From: Candidatus Poribacteria bacterium
Lineage (GTDB): Bacteria > Poribacteria > WGA-4E > WGA-3G
Direction: 5' to 3'
Length of the DNA stretch: 64,000 bases
Assembly: GCA_965215265.1 (NCBI GenBank)
Contig: OZ244048.1
Span: forward strand, 1,792,001 to 1,856,000
Shown: piece after piece, positions 372 through 4,994 of the stretch
Position numbering within the stretch: the stretch's first letter is position 1
How the letters are laid out: every line of letters starts with the position of its first letter
Program-made: the position numbers and the translations under genes
The notes under the pieces: generated by a model
The model's database searches: none
What the model saw: the letters and a program-made list of their open reading frames with translations, nothing else
Told to the model about the DNA's origin: nothing

Positions 372-980
372 ATGAAAGATTGGATGAACGCGAAAAAAGG
401 CATCGTGATTTTATTGGGCGGGCTGGTGTTAGTGTTTGCCTGCTACGGGCTGGTAAGAGCGCAACACGGCTTGAAGCCCGTTCAATCAGAGACGCGGCAC
501 GTCGCCCCGCCGGTTGACGGGCAGGCAGGCATAGCACGTAGCTTGCCTGCAGTCTCCCCCGACTCGGTTTCTCCTGAAACGGTTGCGGAGTGGTTGTCGC
601 TCTTACGCGCCAACAATGACGGCTCCGCGGTTTTTGCACAGGGGATAGCGAACCTTGAGCAGGTGCTGTGGGAGATGCAGCCCGTGGAGCGGCCGCGGCT
701 GTTAGCGAACTATCCGAATCCGTTCAACCCAGAAACGTGGATACCTTATCGGCTGGCAGTGCCAGGGGATGTGGAGATATCCATCTATGCGTTGGACGGG
801 CGGTTAGTCCGGACGTTAGCCTTGGGACATCAAGCGGCGGGCCGTTACGAGAGCAAGGCACGCGCCGCGTATTGGGATGGGCGCAACGCCTCTGGTGAGC
901 GTGTTGCAAGCGGTATCTATTTCTATACGCTGCGTGCCGGCGACTTCTCTGCGACGCAGAAGATGTTGATAAGGAAGTAA
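372..980 (+). CDS. Secreted/membrane-anchored protein consisting mainly of a helical linker plus FlgD-Ig/T9SS-type-A-like C-terminal sorting domain
   Basis: N-terminal hydrophobic stretch GIVILLGGLVLVFACYGLV; C-terminal LLANYPNPFNPETWIPYRL...YWDGRNASGERVASGIYFYTLRAGDFSATQKMLIRK. Confidence 0.85.
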   Translation: MKDWMNAKKGIVILLGGLVLVFACYGLVRAQHGLKPVQSETRHVAPPVDGQAGIARSLPAVSPDSVSPETVAEWLSLLRANNDGSAVFAQGIANLEQVLWEMQPVERPRLLANYPNPFNPETWIPYRLAVPGDVEISIYALDGRLVRTLALGHQAAGRYESKARAAYWDGRNASGERVASGIYFYTLRAGDFSATQKMLIRK

Positions 981-1080
981 AGCGAGAGAGGGATGTAAGG
1001 CGGGGGTGTGTCGTCTCGTGTTCACGAGGCGGTACCCGCCTCCAACCCCTCGTATTTTTAGCCGCGAGTGTTTCGCGGCA

Positions 1081-1197
1081 TTTGGAGGACTGTAATGTAT
1101 GATAAAAACGTGTCAAAGGTTTGGAGCCTTTTGATGTTTGCTAAAAACGATTCAATGATTTGGAGGTCTTTGATGTTTGCTAAAAGTGTGTCAATGA
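1081..1197 (+). repeat. Three tandem 39-bp units, each with a GGAG(G) Shine-Dalgarno-like motif and an in-frame ATG (1095, 1134, 1173)
   Basis: Units start at 1081, 1120 and 1159: tttggaggactgtaatg..., tttggagccttttgatg..., tttggaggtctttgatg... Confidence 0.85.
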
Positions 1198-3965
1198 TGG
1201 CGTGTGTTCTCACGGTTTTGAGTTTGGGCGTTTTGAGCGATGTGTGTGCGCAAGGGGTAAGCCTGCCTGCGGATGTCGGTGTGCTTTCGACTGTGAAAGG
1301 TGATGCGGATGTGAATGGTGATGGCCGTGTGGATATAGTGGATTTGGCACTGGTAGCGGCGCGCCTGGGAACCCGCGGAAACAGTTCGGCAGATGTGAAC
1401 GGGAATAGGGTAGTGGATATAGGGGACGTGGCGTTAGTAGCGGCGGGGTTTAACGGTGCAGCGTCTGCGCCTGCGGCGCCTGCGTCTGCGCCAGCAGGGA
1501 TGGTGCTCATCCCCGCGGGCGAGTTCCAGATGGGCAGCAACGATGCTGAGAATCTTGATGTACGGGAGACCGAGCAGCCTGTGCATACGGTGCATGTGGA
1601 CGCGTTCTATATGGATACGCACGAAGTGACGAACGCTGAGTATAAAAGTTTTGTGCTGGCGAATCCCGAGTGGCAGAAGGGGCGTATTTCGGCTGTCTTC
1701 CACAGAGATAATTACCTAAAACGTTGGAACGGTAATAACTATCCAGAGGGTAAAGGGGACCATCCTGTGACGTTTGTGCCGTGGTATGCGGCGATGGCTT
1801 ATGCTGCGTGGGCAGGGAAGCGTCTTCCAACGGAGGCGGAATGGGAGAAAGCGGCACGTGGTGGGGAGGCAGGTCTGAAGTATCCGTGGGGAGACACGAT
1901 AACGCCGGACGATGCGAACTACGGTTGGAATGTACGCGGTACAACGGCTGTGGGGAGTTATGCTGCGAACGGGTATGGGCTGTTCGACATGGCCGGGAAC
2001 GTGTCGGAGTGGTGTCTTGATGCGTATAATGCGGATTTCTATTCTGCGTCTCCGTCTAGTAATCCGCTGAGTGGTGTGTCTGGTAATACGCTCGCGAATC
2101 TGGATGAGATTGTAGATGACTACACAAGCGTAAGTACGAGCTTAAATCGGGTGTCGCGGGGTGGTAATTGGCGTGGTGATGTGCGTTACCAGCGCGTCGC
2201 CGATCGTTTCAATAAGCCGCCGACGTTCACGAAAAGCTTCGTCGGGTTTCGTTGTGTGAGTGCAGTGCCGGCGGAACCACCCGCACCGGAGCCTGAGCCA
2301 CCCACACCGGAGCCTGAGCCACCCACACCGGAGCCTGAGCCACCCGCACCGGAGCCTGAGCCACCCGCACCGCCGGCACCGGCAGGGATGGTGCTCATCC
2401 CCGCAGGCGACTTCCAGATGGGCAGCAACGGTGCTGATGCGTGGAGTAACGAGCGGCCTGTGCATACAGTGTATGTGGACGCGTTCTATATGGATACGCA
2501 CGAAGTGACGAACGCGGAGTATCAAACTTTTGTGCTGGCAAACCCGCAGTGGCAGAAGACGCGTCTTCCGGATGTCTTCCACAATGGGAATTACCTAAGT
2601 CATTGGGACGGTAATAACTATCCAGTGGGTAAGGGGGACCATCCTGTGACGCATGTGTCGTGGTATGCGGCGATGGCATATTCCGCGTGGGCAGGGAAGC
2701 GTCTGCCAACGGAGGCGGAGTGGGAGAAAGCAGCACGCGGTGGGTTAGTTGGTAAGAAATACCCGTGGGGGGATACGATAACGGAGAACGATGCGAACTA
2801 TCAAACCGGCCGCGGCGATACAACGGCTGTGGGGAGTTATGCTGCGAACGGATATGGGCTGTATGATATGGCAGGGAACGTTCGGGAGTGGTGTCTTGAT
2901 GCGCATAATGCGGCATTTTATTCTGCGTCTCCGTCTAATAATCCGCTGAGCGGTGTGTCTGGCAGTATGCTCGCGAATCTGGATGAGATTGTAGATAACT
3001 ACACAACTGTTACCTCCTCTCGCGTGTTGCGCGGCGGTAGCTGGCACAATTCTGCACGGAACCTGCGTGCCGCTCTTCGCCACGGGAATTCACCTTCGGA
3101 CGCGCGCGGCAACAACGGGTTCCGGTGTGCGAGGGCTGTAACTCCTTCGCCGGAGGACGAGACACCGGCACCGGAACCGCCCGCCCCGGCACCTGCAGGG
3201 ATGGCACTCATCCCCGCAGGCGACTTCCAGATGGGCAGCAACGATGCTGATGCCTGGGATGACGAGGAGCCTGTGCATACGGTGTATGTGGACGCGTTCT
3301 ATATGGACACGCACGAAGTGACGAACGCCGAGTATAAAAGTTTTGTGCTGGCGAATCCCGAGTGGCAGAAGACGCGCATCCCCCGCACGCTCCACAATGG
3401 TCATTACCTAGCCGATTGGGAAGGTAATAACTATCCAGTGGGTAAGGGAGACCATCCTGTGACGCATATGTCGTGGTATGGTGCGATGGCATATGCTGCG
3501 TGGGCAGGGAAGCGTCTGCCGACGGAGGCGGAATGGGAGAAAGCGGCACGCGGTGGTTGGGCCGGGTTAAAGTATCCGTGGGGAAATACGATATCCCCTG
3601 CGAACGCGAACTACGGTAGGAATGTAGGGGACACCCGTCCTGTGGGGAGTTATGCGGCGAACGGATATGGGCTATATGACATGGCAGGGAACGTGTGGGA
3701 GTGGTGTCTTGATGAGTGGGATGCGGATTTCTATTCTGCGTCTCCGTCTAGTAATCCGCTGAGTGGTGTGTCTGACAGTATGCTCGCGAATCTGGATGAG
3801 ATTGTAGATGACTACACAAATGTTACCTCCACTCGCGTGTTGCGCGGCGGTGGCTGGGGCATTAATACACGATACCTGCGCGCCGCTGATCGCTACGGGT
3901 TTACGCCAACGGGCACGAACATCCTCCACTACGGGTTCCGGTGTGCGAGGGCTGTTACTCCTTAA
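1173..3965 (+). CDS. Secreted protein: signal peptide + dockerin-like double EF-hand + three tandem FGE-sulfatase (SUMF1/CLec-fold) domains; probable DGR target
   Basis: ORF track 1068..3965, likely start 1173 (GGAGG, then signal peptide MFAKSVSMMACVLTVLSLGVLSDVCAQ); DVNGDGRVDIVDL and DVNGNRVVDIGDV; 3x MxLIPAGxFQMG...RLPTEAEWEKAARGG...DMAGNVxEW...RGGxW...GFRC. Confidence 0.9.
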   Translation: MFAKSVSMMACVLTVLSLGVLSDVCAQGVSLPADVGVLSTVKGDADVNGDGRVDIVDLALVAARLGTRGNSSADVNGNRVVDIGDVALVAAGFNGAASAPAAPASAPAGMVLIPAGEFQMGSNDAENLDVRETEQPVHTVHVDAFYMDTHEVTNAEYKSFVLANPEWQKGRISAVFHRDNYLKRWNGNNYPEGKGDHPVTFVPWYAAMAYAAWAGKRLPTEAEWEKAARGGEAGLKYPWGDTITPDDANYGWNVRGTTAVGSYAANGYGLFDMAGNVSEWCLDAYNADFYSASPSSNPLSGVSGNTLANLDEIVDDYTSVSTSLNRVSRGGNWRGDVRYQRVADRFNKPPTFTKSFVGFRCVSAVPAEPPAPEPEPPTPEPEPPTPEPEPPAPEPEPPAPPAPAGMVLIPAGDFQMGSNGADAWSNERPVHTVYVDAFYMDTHEVTNAEYQTFVLANPQWQKTRLPDVFHNGNYLSHWDGNNYPVGKGDHPVTHVSWYAAMAYSAWAGKRLPTEAEWEKAARGGLVGKKYPWGDTITENDANYQTGRGDTTAVGSYAANGYGLYDMAGNVREWCLDAHNAAFYSASPSNNPLSGVSGSMLANLDEIVDNYTTVTSSRVLRGGSWHNSARNLRAALRHGNSPSDARGNNGFRCARAVTPSPEDETPAPEPPAPAPAGMALIPAGDFQMGSNDADAWDDEEPVHTVYVDAFYMDTHEVTNAEYKSFVLANPEWQKTRIPRTLHNGHYLADWEGNNYPVGKGDHPVTHMSWYGAMAYAAWAGKRLPTEAEWEKAARGGWAGLKYPWGNTISPANANYGRNVGDTRPVGSYAANGYGLYDMAGNVWEWCLDEWDADFYSASPSSNPLSGVSDSMLANLDEIVDDYTNVTSTRVLRGGGWGINTRYLRAADRYGFTPTGTNILHYGFRCARAVTP
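2277..2372 (+). repeat. 21-bp tandem repeat (4 units plus a partial) encoding a PP[A/T]PEPE linker
   Basis: ccaccc(g/a)caccggagcctgag repeated between lectin domains 1 and 2. Confidence 0.95.
3834..3965 (+). other. Putative DGR variable region (VR) at the gene 3' end; paralogous VR-like segments at 2148-2270 and 3021-3149
   Basis: Differences between copies are concentrated at adenines and at positions 1-2 of NNC/NNT codons between RGGxW and GFRC. Confidence 0.7.
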
Positions 3966-3986
3966 ATCTTTACCCCTTTACCTTCT

Positions 3987-4006
3987 CCGATCTGCGTGCA
4001 GATCGG
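3987..4006 (+). other. Perfect hairpin (8-bp stem, 4-nt loop) about 21 nt after the stop; candidate DGR target-recognition cruciform
   Basis: ccgatctg-cgtg-cagatcgg preceded by pyrimidine tract tctttacccctttaccttct; no poly-T tail. Confidence 0.65.
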
Positions 4007-4020
4007 GTCGGCATAATTTA

Positions 4021-4076
4021 TTAACTAATAGTTAAAAAATCGTTATAAATAGGGTAAAATATTAACTATCTGTTAA
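4021..4076. promoter_or_regulatory. Two palindromic operator-like boxes TTAAC-N5-GTTAA
   Basis: ttaactaatagttaa (4021-4035) and ttaactatctgttaa (4062-4076) in an AT-rich tract. Confidence 0.45.
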
Positions 4077-4323
4077 TTTTCAGTTCATTTTTTGCCCGGT
4101 GCGTGCTGAACCCGGTTCGGTTTTGTGCTGGGCCAAACCGTATCTTGTCCGGCTCGTTTTATGCGCAGCGAAAGATAAAAGCAGAGGTGTGATGGTGAGT
4201 AGGCCGTGTGCCGAATGCTATCACACCTCTTTATTGAATCTTTATGCGATTAACTCCGTTTTTTCCGCTGCAGCAGATGCTCCTGTTTTTCCCAACGTTT
4301 CCCTTTATCCCGTTGCCCGTTAC

Positions 4324-4540
4324 ATGCCTGTTATTGGACTCGCAGATGCGATTTATTGCGTCCAACCAGAAGGAGCCATCTCTCACCTTGAAAAGGCAAA
4401 ACTGCAGGACCCCAGCCTCGCAAATGCCTATTTAGTTTTTGCATACTAAAAGGTCGGGGATTACGACAAAGCGTTAGAACTTCTAAAAGCAAGGCCTGAG
4501 AGAGAGACATTGTTGCACAGGTGCATCTCCGTGCCATTGA
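4324..4540 (+). pseudogene. Degraded TPR-like protein fragment
   Basis: AISHLEKAKLQDPSLANAYLVFAY*KVGDYDKALELLK reads through an internal stop at 4447-4449. Confidence 0.4.
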
Positions 4541-4830: not shown

Positions 4831-4994
4831 GCCTCAATTTCTGCTCGGTTTGCATTTTCGAGAGAAATATCTGCGAGCAGCACCTTTGCGCCCTCTCGCG
4901 CGAACAGGATTGATGTGGCGTAGCCTGTGCCGTCTACTTCCCCTTTTTTCCCCGCACCTGTAACAATGGCAACTTTTCCGATTAATCGATTCAT
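4831..4994 (-). pseudogene. N-terminal fragment of an SDR-family oxidoreductase, truncated at a hairpin repeat
   Basis: MNRLIGKVAIVTGAG...G.G.ATSILFAREGAKVLLADI Rossmann motif; similarity stops at the family-B element 4771-4830. Confidence 0.8.

Follow-up and report, generated by a model that had tools for sequence, protein, structure and literature searches.

The locus and its target gene

The stretch of DNA analysed here, called the window throughout, comprises 64,000 nucleotides from a Candidatus Poribacteria bacterium (assembly GCA_965215265.1, contig OZ244048.1, positions 1,792,001 to 1,856,000) and is equivalent to G000:C1:1792001-1856000, G000 being a genome in a single 4.83-Mb contig. 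Near its beginning lies a gene with the marks of a target of a diversity-generating retroelement (DGR), a system in which a variable repeat (VR) of a target gene is rewritten from a template repeat (TR) with the help of a reverse transcriptase (RT). The longest open reading frame (ORF) opens with a GTG codon (Table 1), and ATG 1194 is the likely start of the gene; the alignment with P0001, an orthologous protein from another assembly, begins in the region of this start. The encoded protein consists of a signal-like peptide, a dockerin and three formylglycine-generating enzyme (FGE)-sulfatase or C-type lectin (CLec) domains, with proline-rich linkers between them, the first of which is built of 21-nt tandem units. 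As a first-pass annotation of the bare sequence had proposed, the FGE-sulfatase model of Pfam matches three stretches of the 965-aa ORF (E 7.5e-186); each domain is closed by the motif GFRC, and within the gene the domain bodies share 86.0-86.5% of their DNA sequence. Pfam and PDB sequence matches, including 2y3c, place the VRs in the C-terminal part of the predicted C-type-lectin/FGE-sulfatase fold. We read the product as a secreted protein that bears a dockerin and three putative lectin-fold pockets, the word secreted referring to the signal-like N-terminal peptide, judged by eye, together with the dockerin match.

Table 1. Features of the target locus, with the cognate variable repeat for comparison
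Feature	Position in window	Strand	Details
DGR target gene	1068..3965	+	965 aa; longest ORF opens at GTG 1068 and ends at TAA 3963-3965
Dockerin type I repeats	1308..1442	+	two DxNxDxxxD-type segments; Pfam Dockerin_1, residues 81-125, 29.5 bits (cut-off 22.9)
CLec/FGE-sulfatase domain 1	1494..2255	+	holds the VR-equivalent stretch VR1
CLec/FGE-sulfatase domain 2	2382..3128	+	Pfam
CLec/FGE-sulfatase domain 3	3195..3944	+	Pfam best stretch, residues 710-961
VR1	2151-2259	+	22/35 adenine and 18/71 other mismatches to TR; Fisher p 2.2e-4
VR2, internal variable repeat	3024-3132	+	TR length; 18/35 adenine and 1/74 other mismatches; Fisher p 4.3e-10
VR-type (IMH-like) sequence after VR2	3133..3147	+	within coding sequence, leads directly into linker
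VR3, C-terminal variable repeat	3837-3948	+	16/35 adenine and 0/74 other mismatches; Fisher p 6.8e-10; one extra codon
IMH-like sequence, stop codon, pyrimidine-rich spacer	3949..3986	+	two CTTTACC heptamers in spacer
Target hairpin/cruciform	3987..4006	+	8-bp stem, 4-nt loop CGTG; DNA fold -7.7 kcal/mol, z = -1.96
3' flank	3966..4095	+	85% identical over 130 nt to the cognate target-avd spacer, C1:1419197-1419326
Cognate VR	outside window		16/35 adenine and 0/74 other mismatches; Fisher p 6.8e-10; same extra codon as VR3
202-aa gene upstream of target	372..980	+	signal-like N-terminus; Pfam FlgD_ig 33.7 bits; NCBIfam Por_Secre_tail 32.6 bits (cut-off 23)
73-nt hairpin repeat	4160..4232	+	23 copies in genome; RNA fold -36.8 kcal/mol, z = -3.9

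The retroelement cassette elsewhere in the genome

A search of the whole genome with the Pfam model RVT_1 returned one match only, at C1:1420096-1420737 (85.2 bits), outside the window. This locus, L001, shows the order FGE-sulfatase gene 3' end, stop codon, pyrimidine spacer, 20-nt hairpin, avd, RT and TR, and its spacer and hairpin are the same as those in the window. The avd gene is a 118-aa ORF recognised by both Pfam bAvd (83 bits, cut-off 40) and NCBIfam DivGenRetAVD (120.2 bits, cut-off 80). The RT is a 354-aa ORF with the motifs IGNLTSQ and YVDD, a sequence of the form IGxxxSQ being a mark of DGR RTs, and both ORFs are intact. Its best match among solved structures, presumably the Bordetella phage RT, has an E-value of 9.6e-63, compared with 1.2e-20 for the best group II intron RT. 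Among phage records, 105 match the RT at E <= 1e-20, including 5 Bordetella phage records, and none of the NCBIfam RT models reaches its cut-off.

The TR is a non-coding, adenine-rich repeat at C1:1421038-1421146, 89 nt past the RT stop codon. In the frame of the VRs, its fixed codons enclose a series of AAC/AAT, ACA/ACG, AGC and AGG codons. The TR spans a coding space of ~3e20 DNA variants and ~4e17 peptide variants, and no stop codon is reachable from it. The cassette lies upstream of the window gene, with 374,691 bases between TR and VR3 and 373,878 bases between TR and VR2; at such a distance the gene would be a remote (trans) target. VR2 and VR3 are also the only TR-like hits inside the window in the TR search of the genome. 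These results bear out what had been proposed from the target gene, namely that no RT or template lies nearby, that a template can be deduced from the two VRs, and that the gene is a remote target of a DGR elsewhere. The codon string of the real TR is almost identical to the deduced one, the non-coding copy that differs from VR3 at adenines only adjoins RT and avd, and across the intervening 374.7 kb the hairpin of VR3 is identical to that of the cognate target. A second TR, which might have accounted for VR1 or for an extra codon in VR3, was rejected: the 40 hits of the TR search include no further adenine-rich copy, and the genome holds one RT only.

On the 3' side of the TR (L001 ~2560-2690), about 100 nt are highly conserved across three genera and occupy the same position in the related loci L003 and L004; the stretch right after the TR counterpart of the initiation of mutagenic homing (IMH) element, designated IMH*, varies, unlike this downstream segment. 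The conserved segment is a candidate for the structured, cDNA-priming portion of the DGR RNA, and no Rfam family matched it. An Rfam scan of the DGR locus gave nothing at gathering score and a single chance-level hit (E 0.84). In a consensus scan of window positions 900-4500, promoter-like and terminator-like sites were no commoner than in shuffles.

Adenine-specific differences between template and variable repeats

The relation of VR2, VR3 and the cognate VR to the TR is given by the Fisher tests of Table 1, which compare adenine with non-adenine mismatches. The sole non-adenine mismatch of VR2 is a synonymous change (CGC>CGT). In all three VRs, the 20 adenine-containing codons are reachable from the TR (20/20) and the 16 adenine-free codons are unchanged (16/16). 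Compared with each other, VR2 and VR3 differ at 26/35 TR-adenine positions and at 1/74 other positions, and three further substitutions fall 3' of the TR-homologous stretch. Re-alignment of 3021-3149 with 3834-3965 reproduces the 30 substitutions and the one three-base gap reported earlier, with the correction that an A is present in one copy at 23 of the 30 rather than at 25. The expectation of three variable sites held for VR2 and VR3, which carry the signature, and failed for VR1. With 18/71 non-adenine mismatches, VR1 is not a current copy of the TR, and 9 of its 36 codons encode residues out of reach of TR adenine mutagenesis. Its class is 84-90% identical among six paralogues, and VR1 appears to be an ordinary, fixed pocket.

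Just before the VRs, the 600-nt stretches of domain 2, domain 3 and the cognate target are pairwise 77.5-84.7% identical, with third codon positions at 67-78%. Non-adenine VR positions are identical at 73-74/74, including 31-32/32 non-adenine third positions, for which the probability given the flank divergence is ~1e-6 (VR3) and ~1e-7 (VR2). Since the flanks have diverged while these sites are near-identical, VR2 and VR3 were presumably overwritten from the TR, or from a TR copy, after the domains diverged. The adenine sites agree between VRs at only 9-14/35, which suggests that each VR was written independently. The three-domain layout is common to four other genes, ~83% identical over their full length, and would thus predate the last writing of VR2; this age favours writing into an internal site.

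One adenine-rich tract differs in length from the TR. At positions 3918-3932, VR3 has five codons, as does the cognate VR (L001 565-579), where the TR (L001 2521-2535) has four AAC. Either the TR changed length after the last writing, or rewriting makes indels at adenine tracts, or the extra codon is an assembly artefact of a heterogeneous population. The sister TRs of two related genomes, G004 and G024, likewise have four codons in this tract, and their cognate VRs match them in length. In P0001, VR3 has TR length at the AAC tract but two extra codons near its 5' end, and other VRs of the genome carry in-frame insertions at other positions.

The target module behind the variable repeats

The TR and the VRs share the sequence GGGTTCCGGTGTGCGA, after which the VRs run GGGCTGT(T/A)ACTCCTT and the TR runs AGACCC; this shared block followed by divergence would correspond to the IMH/IMH* arrangement of Bordetella phage. 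The 15 nt behind VR2 are one base off the 15 nt behind VR3, and are unlike the TR's own continuation. Behind VR3, the pyrimidine tract and the hairpin with 8-bp stem and 4-nt loop are as first described, the 21-nt spacer (3966-3986) containing 18/21 pyrimidines. The hairpin stem begins 38 nt past the end of TR homology, and 5/200 shuffles fold equally well. No hairpin was found behind VR2 or VR1, where the sequence folds no better than shuffles (z = +0.28 for VR2, 3133-3209, and +0.35 for VR1). Within the gene, the full target module is present only at VR3, and the DGR signature only at VR2 and VR3. Beyond the stop codon, two other near-perfect VRs have flanks that share 93-94% identity with the 3' flank of Table 1.

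The same module recurs elsewhere. The VR3-type spacer is found behind most terminal VRs in the genome and also in G004. In each genus, the stretch between stop codon and hairpin holds a short tandem direct repeat, which is CTTTACC x2 in G000 and G004 and a 14-nt unit x2 in G024. Among the 21 terminal VRs of the genome, the four with 0/74 mismatches all have the same hairpin, which is paired throughout. Another form, likewise fully paired, represents an exchange of T:A for G:C, and hybrids of the two forms pair at 7/8 positions. Across the 21 VRs, hairpin pairing drops with non-adenine divergence (Spearman rho -0.69, nominal p = 5e-4), although the copies are related rather than independent and the nominal p overstates the evidence. 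The G024 hairpin has another stem sequence with pairing kept, and that of G004 has the same stem with a GTAA loop.

Apparent turnover between strains

P0001, from a large protein collection, has 901 aa and is 90% identical to the window protein over residues 395-923; P0121 is the same protein with a longer start. The domain bodies of P0001 agree with those of the window protein at 198/204 positions in domain 2 and at 180/206 in domain 3 (87%, against 82.5% for the next-best paralogue), and its domain 1 shows no clear orthologue to the window's. The VRs of P0001 are known as protein only and were judged by codon reachability. By this measure, VR3 has undergone 13 substitutions and 3 gap columns, with 20/20 adenine codons reachable and 16/16 fixed codons unchanged. 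In VR2, 3/36 residues are changed, two of them at TR-adenine codons and one (A to V) unreachable from the TR.

Four of seven sequencing runs were compared to the locus. Contigs from Logan over this paralogue-rich locus are ~100-260 nt long, show the alleles present and drop rare variants. The three VR2 changes recur in run X1, whose contigs show them at 3039, 3103 and 3111. One X1 contig agrees with the window as far as 3850 and once more from 3932 on, and the differing letters between these points span the VR3 variable core. This joint is relied on as concordant with P0001, while joints with sides of 24-45 nt may be paralogue-derived. In the raw-read run X7, 22 reads are 90-95% alike, with 86% running into unlike sequence, and the locus is uncovered. 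Exact-pattern scans of JGI metagenomes for the VR2/linker junction and for the terminal IMH-spacer returned 0 stretches each. In our reading, VR3 has apparently turned over between close strains, whereas VR2 has not.

Related copies in this and other genomes

In the TR search, G000 showed 39 further TR-like stretches, spread over 27 open frames, with 0-19 non-adenine mismatches. Seven VRs in six genes have 0-1 mismatch; these comprise the cognate VR, the window gene's VR2 and VR3, and four others. Of these four, two are frameshifted inside the adenine tract and one has lost IMH and hairpin to a repeat element. The VRs at C1:4795108-4795218 and C1:4150258-4150361 have 0/74 mismatches and intact hairpins, with a frameshift that puts GFRC out of frame. 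Frameshifted copies of this kind could reflect indel-prone rewriting or a consensus over a mixed population.

Related DGRs, with RTs 83% and 79% identical, were found in 2/40 relatives searched. The TRs of G004 and G024 diverge from that of G000 at non-adenine sites, and in each of the two genomes the cognate VR agrees with the local TR. In G004, 2/26 TR-like stretches have 0/82 non-adenine mismatches, one being the cognate VR and the other lying 184 kb away; the internal VR examined there is decayed (13/77). A same-genus genome, G001, has no RT match and lacks the target gene at the syntenic site. From G001:C1:3045107 onward, the genes found from window position 4852 on are kept in order, but neither the target gene nor its upstream partner has a match there. 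The absence of this pair implies either a gain in G000 or a loss in G001.

A degenerate VR-end pattern occurs in 34 copies in G000 and 30 in G004. Three genomes without a close RT by RT protein query hold 10, 8 and 7 copies, and 31/41 genomes searched hold none. The 7-10 VR-type gene ends of G002, G006 and G007 may be orphaned former targets, or their RT may have been missed. The closest named relative of the RT comes from an uncultured Poribacteria metagenome-assembled genome, and the next, at 54-68% identity, are mostly cyanobacterial.

Neighbouring genes, repeats and cohesins

The 202-aa gene upstream of the target has as its C-terminus an FlgD_ig or type IX secretion system (T9SS) type A sorting-like domain. 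Six other full-length copies of this gene (88-94% aa identity) lie ~670-710 bp before other target genes, five of which are multi-domain targets and one single-domain; as each copy stands upstream of a target, the two genes form a repeated pair. The C-terminal sorting-like domain is also found at the end of many of the genome's large proteins (38 tblastn hits). The 73-nt hairpin repeat is followed by a T-rich run, and copies also occur 3' of the TR (G000:C1:1421281-1421345) and after several DGR targets. Such repeats bracket ~1.4-kb units, each with a Transposase_31 (YhgA-like) gene. For this gene, 15/25 tblastn hits are >=88% identical (one being a 54-residue fragment), and several lie directly beside targets.

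Eight cohesin matches above the Pfam cut-off are present in G000:C1 (loci L134-L141). Five lie in large proteins with dockerin-like repeats and a sorting-like tail, and one lies inside a decayed DGR target that combines cohesin, dockerin and CLec domain. A complex prediction, made without controls, for residues 30-92 of the window protein and the cohesin of a 928-aa protein with signal peptide, cohesin and sorting domain scored 0.06, against a mark of 0.34, a value that carries no weight for or against docking.

Proposed mechanism and alternative explanations

With a probability of roughly 0.88, the single DGR of this genome, with avd, RT and TR at C1:1.419-1.421 Mb, has the gene at 1068-3965 as a remote target, with a full module at VR3. 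According to the established DGR model, RNA containing the TR would be reverse-transcribed by an RT-Avd complex with misincorporation opposite template adenines, and the cDNA would then replace a VR that ends in a matching, GC-rich IMH. At VR3, rewriting would be recent enough to have left two closely related strains with completely different sequences, and VR2 would have been overwritten from the TR after the three domains had diverged. The missing hairpin of VR2, together with its small change between two strains, suggests a low-efficiency or now-quiescent site. The two pockets would draw on the TR-encoded space of ~4e17 peptides.

Several observations weigh against this reading. The loop CGTG falls outside the GRNA consensus reported for phage DGRs, and the turnover of VR3 is seen in one other strain, as protein only, with an orthology of domain 3 that is probable. 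In the (AAC)4 tract, the present TR falls one codon short of both VR3 and the cognate VR, and contigs of runs X3 and X4 carry the window's VR2 and VR3 with 0 differences over 160-168 nt. These two facts would suit a fossil target, written by the DGR in the past, in which neither VR is now rewritten and the alleles are effectively fixed; the mere three changes of VR2 between strains point the same way, as do the decayed VRs of the genome, whose graded series from 2 to 19 non-adenine mismatches indicates that targets do fall silent. A fossil is nevertheless improbable, because VR3 has 0/74 non-adenine mismatches and a module intact and identical to the cognate one, because VR3 of P0001 is completely different yet TR-compatible, and because the RT (354 aa, YVDD box) and avd are intact ORFs. 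In addition, X3 and X4 come from one study and may represent the same population as the assembly. A different objection concerns VR2, which could derive from a terminal VR by recombination rather than by writing in place. A diversified terminal VR would have moved into domain 2 by crossovers between paralogues in the conserved RGGxW and GFRC/IMH segments, and internal sites would not be DGR substrates here. This deserves serious consideration, though it is not the probable course of events. The family is a mosaic (P0001 is 97% identical in domain 2, 87% in domain 3 and without clear orthologue in domain 1), the 15 nt behind VR2 are a terminal-type IMH continuation with one change, the hairpin is absent, VR2 is nearly unchanged between strains, and the one internal VR examined in G004 is decayed (13/77). 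However, the genome offers no donor, the best match of VR2 to any other VR being ~80%, and two of the three VR2 changes between strains fall at TR-adenine positions. Moreover, in published accounts, internal VRs are seemingly mutagenised (PMC5758913) and the three VRs of one target are unequally active (10.1101/2023.09.22.558884).

Two further explanations fare far worse. Diversifying selection on pocket codons, combined with gene conversion, could draw on the many paralogues (39 TR-like hits) and the clear recombination among them; it is nonetheless very improbable, since every varying position is an adenine in one non-coding copy that adjoins RT and avd. It would also have to explain why 31-32/32 non-adenine third positions match the TR when flank third positions stand at 67-78%, why no stop codon is reachable from the TR codons, and why G004 and G024 show the same arrangement around a TR of different sequence. 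Equally hard to credit is the function implied by the Pfam name, that of an enzyme generating formylglycine for sulfatase maturation, even though the best PDB sequence matches of domain 3 are such enzymes (E 1.4e-38). The two cysteines of 6s07_A between GG and GFRC, presumably the catalytic pair, align to a TR-adenine-coded residue and to a gap, and VR2 and VR3 have no cysteine before GFRC.

A wider scenario, which extends the reading of the gene as a remote DGR target to the whole genome, is speculative and rather doubtful. One DGR might serve at least seven dispersed pockets, writable or recently written and one of them internal and without hairpin, and have seeded ~34-40 lectin-fold modules that are falling silent, leaving a 'germline' of frozen specificities next to a few live ones, with cell-surface display through dockerin-cohesin pairs and with rewriting prone to indels at adenine tracts. 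Silencing might proceed one by one through IMH or hairpin decay, with frameshifted copies as the cost of such rewriting.

Comparison with known systems

TvpA, variable protein 1 of Treponema denticola, is described as a lipoprotein. Domain 3 matches it (PDB 2y3c) at E 9e-14 over residues 103-251, including the VR, and it is likewise a DGR target of the FGE-sulfatase type of CLec fold; TvpA has a single domain, in contrast to the three domains and dockerin of the window protein. The DGR of Bordetella phage BPP-1 (PMC3240598) shares with the present system the adenine-specific differences between TR and VR, a VR in a C-terminal CLec fold, the pair of Avd and RT, a GC-rich IMH at the VR end and, downstream of the VR, an 8-bp inverted repeat with 4-nt loop. 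For phage DGRs, Guo et al. 2011 (PMC3240598) give stems of 7-10 bp that are GC-rich, a 4-nt loop with the consensus GRNA and a distance of 4-34 bp, and they showed an influence of stem structure and loop on homing efficiency. The present system differs in that the loop is CGTG and the hairpin lies 38 nt from the end of TR homology. It also differs in that the target, with its three lectin domains and two VRs, lies 375 kb from the RT, on a chromosome and not in a phage, and in that the cassette has the order target, avd, RT, TR.

Remote targets and targets with several VRs are already published. Wu et al. 2018 (PMC5758913), in a survey of 372 DGRs, report 10 DGRs with 29 targets >100 kb away and a maximum of seven non-adjacent targets, in Treponema. 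They also describe a CLec1 target in which two of the three VRs are internal, and remark that any internal IMH has to form part of the protein-coding sequence. By the criterion of these authors (only A-to-N changes, with minor exceptions; PMC5758913), G000 has 7 VRs in 6 genes and ~30 decayed copies. The preprint on Thiohalocapsa PB-PSB1 (10.1101/2023.09.22.558884) describes VRs whose non-adenine sites all agree with a TR elsewhere, and one target with three VR-containing CLec domains that are unequally diversified, much like the present gene. Thiohalocapsa PB-PSB1 has many DGR loci, however, while G000 has a single RT, and in the window gene one of the three domains has no TR copy. The window protein carries a dockerin, a term absent from the main text of the preprint, and diversification was measured in metagenomes there and is suggested by one orthologue here. 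No description of a DGR in Poribacteria was found in the literature, the one listed paper that names both being about cold-seep viruses, and dockerin and DGR are named together in one unrelated paper; supplementary tables of surveys may list similar cases. The window gene is particular in its lineage, its dockerin and three types of site side by side.

With this case, an apparently functional DGR whose targets are remote and have several pockets is assigned to a lineage that bears the label Poribacteria. The case also indicates that the target gene by itself can be enough to reveal a DGR target, as the template was rebuilt from two paralogous VRs and confirmed by a search of the genome. The many 'FGE-sulfatase' genes of such genomes are consequently to be read as variable lectin-fold binders and not as sulfatase-maturing enzymes. 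Within one protein, VR3 fully equipped, VR2 with an IMH and no hairpin, and VR1 fixed offer a natural comparison of the minimal needs of a DGR target.

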